Source of the DNA: a phage
Direction: 5' to 3' (one strand)
Length of the DNA: 64,000 bases
NCBI GenBank assembly: GCA_020857175.1
Contig: GCA_020857175.1_3048.1
The position numbers were made by a program, and so were the translations under genes. The notes below the pieces were generated by a model. That model had not been told where the DNA came from and made no database searches. It was given only the letters and a program-made list of their open reading frames with translations. Below are positions 3,988 to 61,415 of this stretch, in pieces; position 1 is the first letter of the stretch; every line of letters begins with the position of its first letter.

Positions 3988-5166
3988 TTAAAAGTATTTT
4001 TTAAAACTCATCATAACTTTATCATCAACATCATTATCAATCTGTGCAACAAGATAAGATGACAGTTCTACTTCTTGTGGCGCTGATTGAACATTATCAG
4101 AATTAAGATATTCACGAATCCAAGGATATGGATGTTTAACCGGAGCATCGGTAATTGGGCATGGAAGACCACACTGTTTCATACGAGATACAGTTAAGTA
4201 ATCAATAAAGCTCCACATGCTATTTGTATTTAATCCAGGAACATCGCCATCTTTAAATAAATGAACTGCCCAATCTTTTTCTTGGCGGTTAACTTCCATG
4301 AAAATATCAACTGCTTCTTGCTCGCACTCTTGAGCAATTTTAACCCATTGATCGCCATCAGTACCAGATTGAAGTTGACGAATAATATATTGTGTACCTT
4401 TAAGATGAAGCTGCTCATCACGTGCAATGAACTTCATAATCTTGGCATTACCTTCCATGATTTCCATGTTTTTATGGAAGTTAAAGGTACACGCAAAGGA
4501 TACATAAAAACGAATAGCTTCTAATGCATTAATAACGTGCAAACAGAGGTAAAGAGATTTCATTAGCTCACGCTTCCAATATGTCTCATGCTCAATAGCA
4601 TCTTCAATAACGTCTTCGTCTGCATTAATTTCTTTTTGGTATTCGATATCAGCTTTAGCGTTTTCCCAATAACGAGTTTTAATCAGAACATCATCATAAT
4701 AACGTCCAATGGATTCAGCACGTTTCATAATAGCTTCATCTAATACAATTTCATCAAATACCTTCGATGGATCAGTATAAAGATTTCGCATGATATGAGT
4801 ATATGAACGACTGTGAATAGTTTCACTAAAAGTCCATGTAGCAACCCATGTATCAAGGCTTGGGTCTGAAATTAATGACATAAGTACAGCAGATGGCGCG
4901 CGACCCTGAATGCTATCTAAAAGTGATTGATACTTCAAGTTGTTAGTAAAAATATTTTGCTGATACTGAGGAAGCTTATTAAACTGTGCAGAATCCATCA
5001 TCAAGTTTACTTCTTCAGGACGCCAGAAAAATGATAATTGCTTTTCGGTTAAATCTTCAAAAACTTTATGACGTTGAATATCATAACGCGCAATACCAAG
5101 ACCTGAACCAAAAAACATAGGTTCTTTTAAAACATCAACTGGATTTGTATTAAAAACTGTGCTCAT
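3988..5166 (-). CDS. nrdB: ribonucleotide reductase small subunit, 392 aa, uninterrupted (no intron)
   Basis: MSTVFNTNPVDVL..., di-iron ligand regions present; continuous ORF, so the T4 nrdB intron/I-TevIII is absent here. Confidence 0.95.
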   Translation of the reverse strand: MSTVFNTNPVDVLKEPMFFGSGLGIARYDIQRHKVFEDLTEKQLSFFWRPEEVNLMMDSAQFNKLPQYQQNIFTNNLKYQSLLDSIQGRAPSAVLMSLISDPSLDTWVATWTFSETIHSRSYTHIMRNLYTDPSKVFDEIVLDEAIMKRAESIGRYYDDVLIKTRYWENAKADIEYQKEINADEDVIEDAIEHETYWKRELMKSLYLCLHVINALEAIRFYVSFACTFNFHKNMEIMEGNAKIMKFIARDEQLHLKGTQYIIRQLQSGTDGDQWVKIAQECEQEAVDIFMEVNRQEKDWAVHLFKDGDVPGLNTNSMWSFIDYLTVSRMKQCGLPCPITDAPVKHPYPWIREYLNSDNVQSAPQEVELSSYLVAQIDNDVDDKVMMSFKKYF

Positions 5167-56841: not shown

Positions 56842-57186
56842 TTAAAAGAATTTAAACTTTTTCTTTGACCTTTTATTGAATGCATCTTGCAGTTGCATTG
56901 TAATACATTTTTCTACATGAGGAGCTAACTCAGCTTTTCTTTCTTGGTCAAGAACAGCAAAGTCCATTACAACCTTTCCATCAACCCAATCCAGTTTAGT
57001 TACATACACTATATGTGTAGAACCATCTTCTAGTTTAATGACAATCTCCTGGATAACATTTTCCATAGCGGATTTAATTATCTTAAGAGACTCATTAAAA
57101 AGACGTTCTTTTCTTTCTTCTTCCCCCTCCGAAGAGGGAGATTCATCGATAATTTCTAGATCTAAATCTAAATCATCTTTATTCAT
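56842..57186 (-). CDS. 40: gp40 head assembly protein, ~114 aa
   Basis: Between uvsX and 41 as in T4; ATG at 57186 just after uvsX stop (track start 57204 is GTG). Confidence 0.55.
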   Translation of the reverse strand: MNKDDLDLDLEIIDESPSSEGEEERKERLFNESLKIIKSAMENVIQEIVIKLEDGSTHIVYVTKLDWVDGKVVMDFAVLDQERKAELAPHVEKCITMQLQDAFNKRSKKKFKFF

Positions 57187-58354
57187 TAAATTCTTCCATA
57201 TCACTTAACTGTTCGAGGTCAGTTTCTAAATCAGCAGCTGATTTACTTTTACTTTCTGGAGATTTAAATTTTTCAACCTTTGAGTTAATCAATTCATCAA
57301 CTTCAGCTTCAACAATTTCATTACTATCAATAGCACCTAACTGATAAGCACGTTTAATAGCATCTCGGAATGGTTGATGCTTAAATAAAGGACCCCAGAA
57401 TGTAGTGCAGTTAGTATCTTTTGCACGCCAAGATTTTTCTTCGCGAATCATCTCGCCGGTTTCTTCATCAAGAAATTCACGAGCATACCAACCATTTTTA
57501 GGTTTTACCACAAATCCTAATTCTAGAGCCATATCTAACAATCCAGAATAAGGATCGATACCACCGTCAAATTTAACATCAATAAAGAATTTACTTTTTT
57601 CTTTAACGGTACGAGATTTTTCTACATTTAGAACAAATTGATACCCCTGAAGATCAGAACCATCTTTAATCTGACGCTTACCGATAATGAATACGGTATC
57701 AGCCGAATACATTACGCCTGTACCACCTGTCATCACGGTTTTACTAAACATTTCAATGGTTTCAATTGTATGGTTAACTGCAACACATGGAATATTTTTA
57801 ATGCTAAAATAAGGAGTAACAATACGGAATAATGACTTCAGTGATTTAGCACGAGTCATATCTGCCACAGATTTTTCATTCAAGGCATCTTCAGTTTCTT
57901 TCTTAGAAGCCATATTACCAATTGAATCGATGAATACAATAACTTTTTCACCACGCTCAATAGTTTCAAGCTGATTCACCATATCAATTTTCAGCTGTTC
58001 AACTGACTGGATTGGCGTATGAATTACTCGTTCTGGGTCAACTCCCATAGACTTAAGATAAGCCGGAGTGATACCAAACTCTGAGTCATAGAACAAACAG
58101 ATAGCATCAGGATACTTATTCAAATAAGCTGCTACCATTGTCAGTGACATATTAGATTTAAAATGTTTAGAAGGCCCTGCGAAAATAGTTAAACCAGACT
58201 GCATACCACCGTCCAACGCACCGCTAATTGCAATATTCAGCATTGGAATTTTAGTACGAACCACATCCTTTTCATTAAAGAACTTGCTTTTAGTAAGCTC
58301 TGCAGTCATTTTAGAAGTGGAAGCTTTAATCAAACGGGATTTTAAATCAGACAT
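57179..58354 (-). CDS. uvsX: RecA-like recombinase UvsX, 391 aa
   Basis: Walker A GPSKHFKS; 391 aa as T4 UvsX. Confidence 0.95.
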   Translation of the reverse strand: MSDLKSRLIKASTSKMTAELTKSKFFNEKDVVRTKIPMLNIAISGALDGGMQSGLTIFAGPSKHFKSNMSLTMVAAYLNKYPDAICLFYDSEFGITPAYLKSMGVDPERVIHTPIQSVEQLKIDMVNQLETIERGEKVIVFIDSIGNMASKKETEDALNEKSVADMTRAKSLKSLFRIVTPYFSIKNIPCVAVNHTIETIEMFSKTVMTGGTGVMYSADTVFIIGKRQIKDGSDLQGYQFVLNVEKSRTVKEKSKFFIDVKFDGGIDPYSGLLDMALELGFVVKPKNGWYAREFLDEETGEMIREEKSWRAKDTNCTTFWGPLFKHQPFRDAIKRAYQLGAIDSNEIVEAEVDELINSKVEKFKSPESKSKSAADLETDLEQLSDMEEFNE

Positions 58355-58470
58355 TATATTTTTCCATAGGCAGCATTATATTTTACTCATGCTTATAATA
58401 AAGGGTATTGTTATACCCAGAGTTTAACTACATCATATTTAATAATGAGATAATTATATCACCTTATCAT

Positions 58471-58584
58471 TTAGCATTTACTTTTTGATTTCTTACTTTC
58501 ATAAAGGTCATACAGATACAATCCAGCAAGACTAACTGCGGCAAATATTCCTAAGCCAGTAATGAATAATAAAGGTCCTAACAT
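58471..58584 (-). CDS. small hydrophobic peptide, 37 aa
   Basis: Manual translation MLGPLLFITGLGIFAAVSLAGLYLY...; between beta-gt homolog and uvsX. Confidence 0.3.
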   Translation of the reverse strand: MLGPLLFITGLGIFAAVSLAGLYLYDLYESKKSKSKC

Positions 58585-58596
58585 ATTAACCTCAAA

Positions 58597-59673
58597 TTAA
58601 GCGGTGATATCGAGAACGCGAAGAAGCTCTTCTTGCCATTCTGATTTTAAACTTTGATACTTAAATAGGGTTTGATGTTGTATTGTAATCAATTCCCGCC
58701 TCAAGCACTCATTGGTTTTTAACTCATTTACTAAAGTTTCAAAATCATTTTTATTCTTAACGTAGAATCTAGGGTCGTCAATAATAAGATGCTCGCTATC
58801 AAACTCTTCATCGATAAGCATCACAGCATCTGATGCCATGGCCTCCCAGACTCTAATTGTGATAAAATTATCATTGTAATCTTTATCACCAATGACTATA
58901 GTTGCTATCGCTTGGCTATTCGTGTCAATAACCAAATTTGATGCTATTTTTTGACTGAATGATGGAGCTACATTCCACGGAAATTTAGGATTTTTAAACT
59001 GTTTCTCTTTAATAGTTCCAAACATTTTAATATTTAAATTGGTATCAAAAAGAAATTCAACTATTTTAGACTCTCGTTGCCCACCTCTAAACGCGCCGCA
59101 GTACACAACGTCATATTTTTTAATAGTTTGATTCGCAGGTTTAAGTTTCTGTGAATGAATAAAATATCTATCTACAGGAAAGTAATCATACTCAAATTCT
59201 TTACCGTATCTTTCGGTTGTTTTCTTATGAGCCTTTTTAGCAATTTCTAGATTTCTGCCCTGAGATATTACTTTAAAGTCAGATGACACAAATAAGTCTT
59301 CATCTTTGTATTCACTTGAAAATTTCTTTCTGCGAACTACCGGAAGAACTTGCATAAATCCAAGACGGCCATCAGTAAAAATATAATAAATTTTACTTCT
59401 ATATTCAGCCATCAATTTATATGAATTTAAAACGATTGGATTTTTCTTTCCACCGAAGAAATTGATAGCGCCATTAATTACTATTAGTCTATCGTATGAA
59501 TTTATATCAGTTACTACATCAAATGATATAGTGTATTCAGTATTTCGCATTGAAATTATATCAACGGAATGCCCTAATTCAGTTAAAGACCTGCCTATTA
59601 AAATAGTTTCGGCTGATGATACTATTTTAAAATCACTCACAGTATTACTTAAATTTAGAATAGCTATTTTCAT
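58597..59673 (-). CDS. beta-glucosyltransferase-family DNA hmC glycosyltransferase (GT-B), 358 aa
   Basis: N-terminus MKIAILNLSNTV and C-terminus FITIRVWEAMASDAVMLIDEEFD resemble T4 beta-gt; middle diverged. Confidence 0.7.
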   Translation of the reverse strand: MKIAILNLSNTVSDFKIVSSAETILIGRSLTELGHSVDIISMRNTEYTISFDVVTDINSYDRLIVINGAINFFGGKKNPIVLNSYKLMAEYRSKIYYIFTDGRLGFMQVLPVVRRKKFSSEYKDEDLFVSSDFKVISQGRNLEIAKKAHKKTTERYGKEFEYDYFPVDRYFIHSQKLKPANQTIKKYDVVYCGAFRGGQRESKIVEFLFDTNLNIKMFGTIKEKQFKNPKFPWNVAPSFSQKIASNLVIDTNSQAIATIVIGDKDYNDNFITIRVWEAMASDAVMLIDEEFDSEHLIIDDPRFYVKNKNDFETLVNELKTNECLRRELITIQHQTLFKYQSLKSEWQEELLRVLDITA

Positions 59674-60521
59674 GATATTTCCGTAACTTCAACTTTGTGA
59701 ATAGCATTAAACTTATGAAATGCTTCTGATTTTTCTTTACGCGAAACGCACATGCGAAGAACCTTTAATGGCTCGTCTTCTTCACCCAACGATTTTCGTT
59801 TTTCAATATTAGAAGTTTTCCAACGAGCTTGCTCTGGAAACTCTCTATTGATTTGCTCAAGCGCTCTATTATGTTTAGAATTACTACGAATTGAACTACA
59901 CCCGCCAGGAGCTTGTGCTTTTCCAGATACAACTAGATATTTGAACAAGGCCAAATGCGGATAACCTTGATTAATTAAATTGAGAAATGCATACATATCT
60001 TCGCATAAATCAATTTTTCCATACCCAATTTGTTCTGTCGTAAGTTTTCCGAGGTCATACCATGTATTCGTGAATCCATATGAATTTTCACGATAATTAC
60101 CCCAAGATGAAGTAATTTTAAAAATTGGTAGACGAGCATGACCGTGATAATACCCGCAATCCATGGCATCTTCAACATATTGAATCAATTCATAGAACTG
60201 TTCACGAGTTAATTGATTAATTTTATCTACGCGCCGTTTATCGTCTCTCTTTCGTATTGAACTCATACGGATAGTAGTATCATCGTCAATCATCCAGATT
60301 CGTTGACCTGCATACATATCAGTAATTGCTTTACGAGTACCGGCAATTCCATTAACATCATCAGGAATAGTTACAATTTTAGCTCTAGACCCATAGGCAT
60401 CATAATAAGCTTTTTCTTCGTGTTCACGCACTATAATATGCGGTTCATAATCAGTCGGAAACATATCAAGGGCAGAAACTGCCCCGACACGTTGATAACT
60501 TGGAATTACGAATTGAATCAT
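59670..60521 (-). CDS. predicted GT-A-fold glycosyltransferase with DxD motif, ~283 aa
   Basis: QFVIPSYQR N-terminal strand and IWMIDDDTTIR DxD motif; ATG at 60521 (AGGTGA SD) overlaps gene 42 stop (ATGA); stop overlaps beta-gt start. Confidence 0.55.
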   Translation of the reverse strand: MIQFVIPSYQRVGAVSALDMFPTDYEPHIIVREHEEKAYYDAYGSRAKIVTIPDDVNGIAGTRKAITDMYAGQRIWMIDDDTTIRMSSIRKRDDKRRVDKINQLTREQFYELIQYVEDAMDCGYYHGHARLPIFKITSSWGNYRENSYGFTNTWYDLGKLTTEQIGYGKIDLCEDMYAFLNLINQGYPHLALFKYLVVSGKAQAPGGCSSIRSNSKHNRALEQINREFPEQARWKTSNIEKRKSLGEEDEPLKVLRMCVSRKEKSEAFHKFNAIHKVEVTEIS

Positions 60522-61258
60522 TTCCACTCACCTTTATAGTCTTTTTTCACAATATGAGTTTCGCCAGTATTCCACCAATGATCAACCAAATAAAAATGAC
60601 GAGAATATACATGAAGACTTCCAACATTCCATATAATAGAACCTGCTTTATACTGACGAGTTGAATCGCCTGCATTCAAATCAGATACTAATTTATCTAA
60701 TACGTATTTTTGCCATGCATAATCATTACGGAATCCGAAGACCACGTCATTTGAGCGCATGCTTACTACCGCATTGACTTTCTTATCACGAATCAAGTAC
60801 TGTACTGTATTAGTACACATGAAATCTGACATACCATCTTTATTGTAGTCAAACTGCATAGATGGACGAGTATAAATCATGATACCACGTCGAGAATCAG
60901 GATTTTGACCAAGTTCAGCTAAACACATATCATACTGGGCATAGTTATCTTCTGACCAAATAGCCCAACCATAATTCGAGTTAATTTCGCCTTTAGAAGA
61001 TGCTACCTGCTGCCAAATCTTTGGTGTTTCACCTGGAATATCTTTAACAAACAAACTCTTAGATTTATACCATTCAAGTTCACGCTGAATGTATTCATCA
61101 TTAAGAGCGCCAAAAATAAACGGTTCATCTGCTACAAATGATGCGCCAATAATTTCAATAGTTTTAACACCAGTTTTATCAACTACGAAATCTTTTTCTT
61201 TTAATGCAAGCCCCAAATGAAGACGGATTTCTTCAACTGTCATAGAGTCACTAATCAT
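60518..61258 (-). CDS. 42: dCMP hydroxymethylase gp42, 246 aa
   Basis: Thymidylate-synthase-like fold; 246 aa as T4 gp42. Confidence 0.9.
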   Translation of the reverse strand: MISDSMTVEEIRLHLGLALKEKDFVVDKTGVKTIEIIGASFVADEPFIFGALNDEYIQRELEWYKSKSLFVKDIPGETPKIWQQVASSKGEINSNYGWAIWSEDNYAQYDMCLAELGQNPDSRRGIMIYTRPSMQFDYNKDGMSDFMCTNTVQYLIRDKKVNAVVSMRSNDVVFGFRNDYAWQKYVLDKLVSDLNAGDSTRQYKAGSIIWNVGSLHVYSRHFYLVDHWWNTGETHIVKKDYKGEWK

Positions 61259-61265
61259 TTAAACC

Positions 61266-61415
61266 TCAATTGATACATTCATATTTAACTTGTAACAGTA
61301 ATAAACTCCAACCTAAAATAATAGTTGGAATCATAAGAGGAACCGTTACACTATAGTATATACTTATTATAATCATCAAGATTAAAAGCAACACTGCTAT
61401 AATTTTGCTTTTCAT
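61266..61415 (-). CDS. small membrane protein, 49 aa
   Basis: Manual translation MKSKIIAVLLLILMIIISIYYSV...; ATGA overlap with imm stop. Confidence 0.4.
   Translation of the reverse strand: MKSKIIAVLLLILMIIISIYYSVTVPLMIPTIILGWSLLLLQVKYECIN

Follow-up and report, generated by a model that had tools for sequence, protein, structure and literature searches.

A T2/T6-type and a T4-type glucosyltransferase gene side by side in the gene 42-uvsX interval of a phage genome

The interval between gene 42 and uvsX in a 64-kb stretch of phage DNA (contig GCA_020857175.1_3048.1, 64,000 nucleotides, hereafter the window) carries two adjacent glucosyltransferase genes, one encoding a T2/T6-type beta-glucosyl-HMC-alpha-glucosyltransferase (TAGT) and the other a divergent homolog of the T4 beta-glucosyltransferase (b-gt). 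This is probably an early-gene DNA-modification block of a Tequatrovirus phage, in which the T2/T6 and T4 solutions meet at one locus and serve a pathway with three glucosyl forms, its likely product being hmC DNA with alpha-glucosyl, gentiobiosyl and beta-glucosyl groups. The locus is not a new system, as the two enzymes come from textbook families whose sequences at this locus can be found in 12 or more public phage genomes.

In the proposed pathway, for which the enzyme roles are taken from Petrov 2010 (PMC2993671) and NAR 2026 (PMC13216743), gp42 would make hm-dCMP, so that the phage DNA would contain hmC instead of C. An alpha-gt, whose gene would lie in another part of the genome and was observed only in near-identical phages, would place alpha-glucose onto most hmC after replication, the 283-aa TAGT would add a second glucose (beta-1,6) to alpha-glucosyl-hmC, yielding gentiobiosyl-hmC, and the 358-aa b-gt homolog would transfer beta-glucose onto the hmC out of reach of alpha-gt. 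Virion DNA would thereby carry all three forms, with bare hmC scarce or absent. In T2/T6 and in T4 delta-b-gt, about 25% of hmC is bare, and b-gt glucosylates completely (PMC13160076). The b-gt gene would have come in, or persisted, on a 1.3-kb segment joined within the last TAGT codons.

The original prediction had placed two adjacent glycosyltransferase genes between uvsX and gene 42, and the ORFs and Pfam matches agree with it, down to the coordinates (Table 1). It had also held that T4 has a single b-gt here, which comparison with T4 confirms, b-gt standing alone at the gene 42/uvsX locus of that phage. Window gene 42 is 99.9% identical at the nucleotide level to that of phage e11/2 and 95.7% to T4 gene 42, and the TAGT ORF spans 283 aa from its ATG, or 285 aa if started at an upstream GTG. 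Translational coupling of the latter to both neighbours had likewise been proposed: 4-bp ATGA overlaps join the gene 42 stop to the TAGT start and the TAGT stop to the b-gt homolog start, making co-translation probable, and the three genes are probably one expression unit with coupled translation. A consensus scan for promoters and terminators gave counts not above shuffle expectation, with one terminator-like hairpin worth noting, which may perhaps mark the end of this transcription unit.

Table 1. Features of the gene 42-uvsX interval and its flanks, in window coordinates
Feature	Position	Strand	Remarks
Gene 42, dCMP hydroxymethylase	60518..61258	-	246-aa ORF; PF00303, E 1e-15
T2/T6-type beta-glucosyl-HMC-alpha-glucosyltransferase (TAGT, GT-A fold)	59670..60521	-	283 aa
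Divergent T4 beta-glucosyltransferase homolog (GT-B fold)	58597..59673	-	358 aa; PF09198, E 2e-61
Small hydrophobic ORF, 37 aa, accompanying the b-gt homolog	58471..58584	-	annotated in KMB26
1.3-kb segment: b-gt homolog, small ORF, new TAGT tail and part of the intergenic region	58396..59697	.	
Terminator-like hairpin followed by a T-run, between uvsX and the small ORF	58403..58418	-	consensus scan
uvsX recombinase, downstream flank	57179..58354	-	391-aa ORF; KMB26 annotation: recombination protein

Judged by its matches, the 283-aa ORF is a resident gene and encodes T2/T6 beta-alpha-gt, an enzyme known for a long time. Its product matches the TAGT profile PF20691 over positions 2-205 of 205 (E 9.4e-10; 39.2 bits, gathering cutoff 27.5), its residues 1-276 equal the enzyme of phage e11/2 without a mismatch, and the T6 record can be aligned along its entire length. 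Moreover, 459 Tequatrovirus records annotated as beta-glucosyl-HMC-alpha-glucosyltransferase are 95-99% identical to it, and its nucleotide sequence is 99.9% identical to the TAGT of phages without any b-gt. The original prediction had pointed to GT-A hallmarks in this ORF and had suggested comparison with T2/T6 beta-alpha-gt; the quoted motifs are present, the DDD motif (D79-D80-D81), a DxD metal/nucleotide-sugar motif, is invariant in an alignment of 10 sequences, and the comparison leads to that very enzyme. Of an RB69-type arabinosyltransferase, which the prediction had also named for comparison, the Pfam results and the near-identity to the T2/T6 enzyme gave no sign. A sequence search of the PDB at E<=1 returned no solved TAGT structure, and the fold was therefore examined through a model, in which IQFVI forms the first beta-strand and which gives GT-A fold matches, so that a glycosyltransferase fold, the point on which the prediction had been made to depend, is supported at the level of the model. 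A novel GT-A enzyme, in turn, is ruled out by identity to the T2/T6 enzyme. The description of this ORF as an extra gene holds relative to T4 only, whereas in comparison with the closest relatives it is the b-gt homolog that is extra.

The known substrate of T2/T6 beta-alpha-gt is alpha-glucosyl-hmC, made by alpha-gt (PMC2993671; PMC13216743), and gentiobiosyl-hmdC has been found by HPLC/MS in related Tequatroviruses with alpha-gt and TAGT (PMC13390438). The idea of a cassette formed by the two genes and gene 42 accordingly survives in part: the module does imply a pattern other than that of T4, with a disaccharide made in two steps, but it is not self-contained, because alpha-gt, the source of the TAGT substrate, would be encoded outside the window. 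Within the 64 kb no alpha-gt was found, the gene normally being situated past the end of the window. Three phages with loci 98.6-99.9% identical to that of the window, namely KMB26 (99.9%), G2540 (98.6%) and G3F6, have a canonical alpha-gt in their annotation, and that of KMB26 is 100% identical to the alpha-gt of many Tequatroviruses; from these relatives we infer an alpha-gt in the genome of the window phage as well. G2540 has been stated to carry genes for all three transferases (PMC8056088), and in a survey all three types occurred in 1 of 753 phages, with KMB26 placed among those having alpha-GT and beta-GT (NAR 2026, PMC13216743). The three-transferase genotype is thus already in print, from 2021 and 2026; the G2540 and KMB26 papers list the genotype only, and the present analysis adds the junctions, the substitution pattern and the b-gt frameshift of G2540.

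The 358-aa protein is, by sequence, a full-length and divergent member of the T4 beta-glucosyltransferase family. It matches PF09198 (T4-Gluco-transf) with 207 bits (cutoff 27) over profile positions 1-166 of 167, and phmmer against the PDB matches it to chain 1bgt_A across both Rossmann-like domains (E 7.5e-124, 55% identity, query 1-355 on chain 1-350), with the D100A mutant structure 1NZD also among the matches. Conservation of both termini with divergence in the middle, as had been proposed for this protein, is not what the alignment gives: identity to T4 b-gt in successive 100-column blocks is 59/45/71/42%, so that pattern is not correct, the best-conserved part being residues ~196-300 and the C-terminus ranking among the least conserved. 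Residues E22, D100, R191, R195, Y261, R269 and E272 of T4 b-gt are kept in the alignment. Of these, Asp100 as catalytic base, along with Glu22, and Arg191, Arg195, Arg269 and Glu272 as UDP-binding residues are the ones reported in the structural papers of Morera and Lariviere. Substitutions relative to T4 comprise I101G, P104G, S189A and M240S, the first two turning the DIRLPF beside the catalytic Asp into DGRLGF.

Such changes raise the question of a b-gt homolog with altered specificity, for another sugar donor or for an acceptor other than bare hmC, which would produce a modification undescribed in T-even phages. Identity to T4 b-gt of only 55%, a long branch in an unbootstrapped NJ tree, the lineage-specific DGRLGF, the presence of S189A and M240S in the donor-binding loop and the enrichment of non-synonymous changes in this gene all point in that direction. 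We nevertheless regard this as very improbable, given that the catalytic and UDP-binding residues compared are kept save S189A, that M240S is common to CC31 and S16 and P104G is present in AB1I1T, and that neither the ORF list nor the KMB26 annotation has sugar-nucleotide biosynthesis genes adjoining the locus.

Variation within the gene bears on whether it is needed at all. Compared with the copy on a contig 97.5% identical to the window, the b-gt homolog differs by 16 non-synonymous and 6 synonymous changes. Its dN/dS is 0.67, while the neighbouring genes have values of 0.02-0.16 (Fisher p 6e-5), and 4 of these changes fall in the UDP-phosphate loop, a loop that also contains the position of T4 S189 (Ala here). 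Besides, the G2540 copy has one additional A in an A6 run, a frameshift that truncates the protein. Because of this non-synonymous excess, the changes in the UDP loop and the G2540 frameshift, the activity of the homolog could be weakened, altered or dispensable. Taken further, the same observations, with a 16:6 ratio near neutral expectation beside strongly constrained flanking genes and S189A in the UDP-binding loop, would make the b-gt homolog a redundant passenger under relaxed selection, leaving T2/T6-like DNA with alpha-glucosyl and gentiobiosyl hmC only. This seems unlikely, though it deserves some weight, since an unbroken ORF of 358 codons is found in 11 records as well as in L013, a diverged contig, the checked catalytic and UDP-binding residues other than S189 are retained in a protein that has diverged by 45% from its T4 counterpart, the coupling through ATGA is exact, and the counter-defence value of T4 b-gt has been demonstrated (PMC13216743; PMC13160076). 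The G2540 frameshift, for its part, is located in a homopolymer run and could reflect an error of sequencing.

On the TAGT side of the 1.3-kb segment, 99.94% identity to e11/2 begins at 59698, so the junction falls at TAGT codon 277, and on the uvsX side matches to other phages (97%) end near 58395. Of 604 matching records, 12 contain the region in full, and the known occurrence of the segment is confined to 12 phage records plus a single metagenomic contig, T6-type Tequatroviruses otherwise lacking it. At 99% identity or more, the b-gt homolog occurs in 11 phage records only, followed by T4-type b-gt at ~55%, and a set of 5.8 billion proteins yielded no relatives between 96% and 55%, which is why we consider the donor lineage unsampled. 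The small ORF recurs in G2540, KMB26 and L013, and its first 48 nt match the region 3' of T4 b-gt at 39/48 positions (score 44, shuffle maximum 29). We also considered whether its 3' end had arisen from that of TAGT by duplication and divergence, which would have marked an insertion, and rejected this because the local alignment scored 15 where shuffled sequences gave a mean of 17.5. A simple deletion or insertion relative to e11/2 is unsupported as well, since the uvsX-proximal flank is ~84% identical to e11/2, yet 97% to other T6-type phages. Mosaic recombination is part of the history of the locus, and its junctions point to two or more entries of b-gt into the Tequatrovirus 42-uvsX interval, one replacing TAGT in T4 and one adding b-gt behind TAGT here.

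Outside this genus, the order 42-TAGT-b-gt-uvsX is the standard layout in CC31 (Enterobacter, Karamvirus) and S16 (Salmonella, Gelderlandvirus), which share with the window a 358-aa b-gt and the 4-bp TAGT/b-gt overlap; identity to the window is 44-45% for b-gt and 65% for TAGT, and the small ORF found 3' of the S16 b-gt is unrelated in sequence to that of the window. CC31 and S16 are reported to be without alpha-gt (PMC2993671), unlike the relatives of the window phage. The two enzymes might work as a pair, as is presumed in CC31/S16, converting beta-glucosyl-hmC into a beta-linked diglucoside beside the alpha-gt/TAGT route or in its place. The shared layout in phages without alpha-gt fits such a pairing, as does the clustering of TAGT sequences by phage lineage and not by partner gene, the Mineola TAGT being 71% identical to the b-gt-partnered TAGT of CC31/S16 and 63.5% to that of Tequatrovirus; linkage specificity was also left undecided in the NAR 2026 discussion (PMC13216743). 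We still find it quite unlikely here, as the window TAGT is a T6-type allele, hardly distinguishable from that of phages lacking b-gt, and alpha-glucosyl-hmC is the known substrate of T6-type TAGT (PMC13216743; PMC2993671). Klebsiella phages, taken together, have alpha-gt matches.

Under the preferred three-glucosyl-form pathway, a T6-type phage with an added b-gt is predicted to close the gap of ~25% bare hmC. Since this gap sensitises T2/T6-type phages to hmC-specific defences, the genotype matters for host range; some of the isolates carrying it were gathered with phage therapy in view. We give a slim probability to the combination of the b-gt homolog, a T6-type TAGT and alpha-gt producing an undescribed T-even hmC pattern, be it full mixed coverage, a beta-linked diglucoside or an altered sugar or acceptor due to the substitutions beside the catalytic Asp and in the donor loop; if true, DNA modified in this way might escape at once the defences specific for alpha-glucosyl groups (Brig1), those specific for bare hmC (Brig3, McrBC) and perhaps further ones. 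The locus also offers a natural test case for whether TAGT discriminates the anomeric linkage of the first glucose.

Like T4 b-gt, the 358-aa homolog is encoded between gene 42 and uvsX, with a homologous small-ORF start 3' of both genes, but 45% of its residues are changed, it is 7 aa longer, a length shared with CC31/S16, and no segA homing endonuclease gene adjoins it. In T4, the b-gt segment replaced TAGT, of whose 3' end only 25 nt remain, whereas in the window b-gt and TAGT stand together. Like T2/T6 beta-alpha-gt, the window TAGT has an ATGA overlap with gene 42, the GT-A fold and the DDD motif; unlike the T2/T6/e11/2 enzymes, its last 4 residues (PIAVD tail) give way to 7 residues (KVEVTEIS) at the recombination junction, and its stop overlaps the b-gt start, while that of T2/T6-type TAGT faces the uvsX intergenic region. 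What is unusual about the window is the rare, already reported pairing of T4-type and T2/T6-type enzymes in one phage.

The locus is part of a block of T-even early genes on the minus strand, as recognized by ORF calling and from the annotation of the Tequatrovirus KMB26, with a G+C content of 30-37% that is even over its whole length. Two adjacent transferase genes do lie between uvsX and gene 42 (dCMP hydroxymethylase), and the coordinates and motifs originally predicted for both ORFs were correct. ATGA overlaps join the stop of gene 42 to the start of the 283-aa ORF and the stop of the latter to the start of the 358-aa ORF, and co-expression of these three genes is probable. The 49-aa membrane-like ORF is annotated in the Tequatroviruses e11/2 and G2540 and unannotated in the near-identical KMB26 record; its version in the Logan metagenomic contig SRR32122129_529 (L013) matches Pfam PF26865.

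Features of the locus in transcription order
Feature	Window position	Strand	Remark
gene 43 (DNA polymerase), then imm.1/imm and small ORFs		minus	first in transcription order
49-aa ORF	61266-61415	minus	between imm and gene 42
gene 42	60518-61258	minus	
283-aa ORF (TAGT)	59670-60521	minus	
358-aa ORF (b-gt homolog)	58597-59673	minus	
37-aa hydrophobic ORF, MLGPLLFITGLGIFAAVSLAGLYLYDLYESKKSKSKC	58471-58584	minus	3' of the b-gt homolog
uvsX	57179-58354	minus	last in listed order

The 283-aa protein matches Pfam PF20691 (TET-associated glycosyltransferase, TAGT) above the gathering score, and the T6 gene aligns with it throughout. Since its residues 1-276 are identical to the e11/2 protein annotated as beta-glucosyl-HMC-alpha-glucosyltransferase, and 95-99% identical versions occur in 459 phage records, including RB3 and many T2/T6-like phages, it is the known T2/T6 enzyme rather than a new one. 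A sequence search for a solved structure of this protein detected none, and its invariant D79-D80-D81, after a beta-strand, agrees with the published AF3-based placement of T6 TAGT in the GT-A superfamily near GT2 (PMC13216743); the predicted glycosyltransferase fold of the 283-aa ORF holds up. In the T6 record MH550421 (L005:2138-2980, minus), the TAGT (ggt) frame running from the gene 42 overlap stops at codon 10 (MIQFVIPSY-stop) and a shorter 261-aa ORF is annotated from a downstream start; in the T6 stock that was sequenced, the enzyme forming gentiobiosyl groups may contain a nonsense mutation.

By its sequence, the 358-aa protein is a member of the known T4 beta-glucosyltransferase family, matching Pfam PF09198 with 207 bits and aligning over its full length with the T4 enzyme of known structure (1BGT family; 55% identity, E 7.5e-124). 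It keeps E22, N70, D100, G188, R191, R195, Y261, R269 and E272 (T4 numbering), of which we take D100 to be the catalytic base and the arginines and E272 to bind UDP, and it differs at I101G, P104G, S189A and M240S; the D100A mutant entry 1NZD among its PDB matches fits this role of D100. The protein had been described as conserved at both termini and diverged in the middle, but blockwise identities to T4 b-gt of 59, 45, 71 and 42% place the conserved core in the donor-binding domain. In a rough neighbor-joining tree without bootstraps, it forms with a 96%-identical relative (P0001) a long branch, which has the T4/AB1I1T group as its sister and falls outside the CC31/S16 group, and a collection of 5.8 billion proteins contained none with an identity to it between 55% and 96%.

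The original prediction regarded the 283-aa ORF as the extra gene, but the unusual one is the b-gt homolog, since the whole 3-kb region is present in only 12 of 604 matching phage records; a typical T6-type record spans 1758 bp versus 3001 for the region. These 12 records are partly non-independent: several are near-identical phages that a single study isolated from wastewater, and PM123 and PM136 are derivatives bred in the laboratory (PMC8614997). Independent sources comprise German wastewater (CHD and G3 isolates), German manure (G2540), Slovak wastewater (KMB26), the UPWr_E2 isolate and the Logan contig. Relative to e11/2, TAGT codons 1-276 and gene 42 fall in a stretch of 99.94% identity that begins at 59698 and extends rightwards; on the other side of 59698 all similarity is lost, and it resumes only in the intergenic region next to uvsX. 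At this junction, PIAVD-stop at the end of TAGT is replaced by KVEVTEIS-stop, the new stop overlapping the b-gt ATG. Because the match to T6-type phages ends there, and that on the uvsX side (97% to EC101 and DalCa) at about 58395, the lineage-specific segment measures about 1.3 kb (58396-59697), carrying the b-gt homolog and the small ORF.

T4 has, as expected, a single b-gt between gene 42 and uvsX, followed by segA. The sequence downstream of T4 b-gt starts with a homolog of the small ORF (39/48 nt, L004:~4104-4150), a shorter version left unannotated in the T4 record, and 25 nt directly upstream of segA (L004:4194-4218) match the last codons and stop of T6-type TAGT at 24 positions, both well above shuffles. 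These two matches suggest that in T4 a b-gt-plus-small-ORF segment replaced the TAGT body of a T6-like ancestor. In the window lineage TAGT is intact, and a different b-gt allele, 55% identical to that of T4, was attached after its codon 276. Thus, b-gt seems to have entered the gene 42-uvsX interval at least twice.

The Logan contig is colinear with the window (97.5% identity over 4.7 kb), its b-gt homolog being intact with 96% amino acid identity. Between the two versions (58597-59673 and L013:2432-3508), 16 non-synonymous and 6 synonymous differences give a dN/dS of 0.67, compared with 0.06 for gene 42, 0.02 for uvsX and 0.16 for TAGT (Fisher p 5.6e-5 for the N:S counts). The b-gt homolog has a dS of 0.028 versus 0.09-0.12 in its neighbors and more non-synonymous changes, four replacements (window A194S, G197A, Q199K, I204M) clustering in the donor-phosphate loop. 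The segment could have spread between lineages more recently than its flanks diverged and could be evolving nearly neutrally or adaptively. The G2540 b-gt homolog (MK327936, L006:2501-3578) is nucleotide-identical to that of the window except for an extra A in an A6 run at position 722, which breaks the gene into ORFs of 249 and 80 aa and represents either true inactivation or an error in sequencing the homopolymer; the +1 A in an A4 run that splits TAGT in the Logan contig (L013:1583-2435) could be a sequencing artefact. These substitutions and frameshifts are compatible both with relaxed constraint on a redundant b-gt homolog and with its rapid adaptive change in an arms race.

In these families, gp42 produces hm-dCMP, hmC receives an alpha-linked glucose from alpha-gt, gentiobiosyl-hmC arises when the T2/T6 enzyme attaches a second glucose, and T4 b-gt beta-glucosylates the hmC that remains (PMC13216743, PMC2993671). 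Tequatroviruses with alpha-gt and TAGT contain hmdC, alpha-glc-hmdC and gentiobiosyl-hmdC and no beta form (PMC13390438). About 25% of hmC is bare in T2, T6 and T4 delta-b-gt, and the hmC glycosylase Brig3 restricts these phages, whereas b-gt alone glucosylates completely (PMC13160076); b-gt also reduces alpha-glucosylation and contributes to evasion of Brig1 (PMC13216743). In a T6-type phage that gained b-gt, hmC would bear alpha-glucosyl, beta-glucosyl and gentiobiosyl groups, and little of it would be bare. The window TAGT could extend beta-glucosyl-hmC as well. TAGT of Mineola (Jiaodavirus) is 71% identical to the b-gt-partnered TAGT of CC31 (Karamvirus) and S16 (Gelderlandvirus) and 63.5% to that of Tequatroviruses (L014:2501-3337 against L007:1168-2004 and window 59670-60521), and alpha-gt homologs occur in Klebsiella phages as a group. 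If Mineola has alpha-gt, TAGT sequences apparently group with the phage lineage and not with the anomeric type of their partner, which leaves room for such extension.

No alpha-gt lies within the 64-kb window, because the window ends in gene 43; KMB26 has a canonical one about 13 kb off, with 100% identity to the alpha-gt of many Tequatroviruses, and G3F6 and G2540 carry alpha-gt too. G2540 was credited with all three transferases in 2021 (PMC8056088), and a 2026 NAR study reported all three types in "only 1" of 753 phages and listed KMB26 as one of six phages with alpha-GT plus beta-GT (PMC13216743), both papers without analysis of the locus or DNA chemistry. The predicted cassette for a non-T4 hmC modification is partly supported. 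Both genes come from known families, and the three-transferase genotype and the gene arrangement are already published. TAGT also adjoins b-gt in Serratia SP1 and AB1I1T, the two are annotated side by side in many further records, and Petrov et al. described the b-gt and beta-alpha-gt combination of CC31 in 2010 (PMC2993671). CC31 and S16 have exactly the window order 42-TAGT-b-gt(358 aa)-uvsX with the same 4-bp TAGT/b-gt overlap. The identity of their proteins to those of the window is only 44-45% for b-gt and 65% for TAGT.
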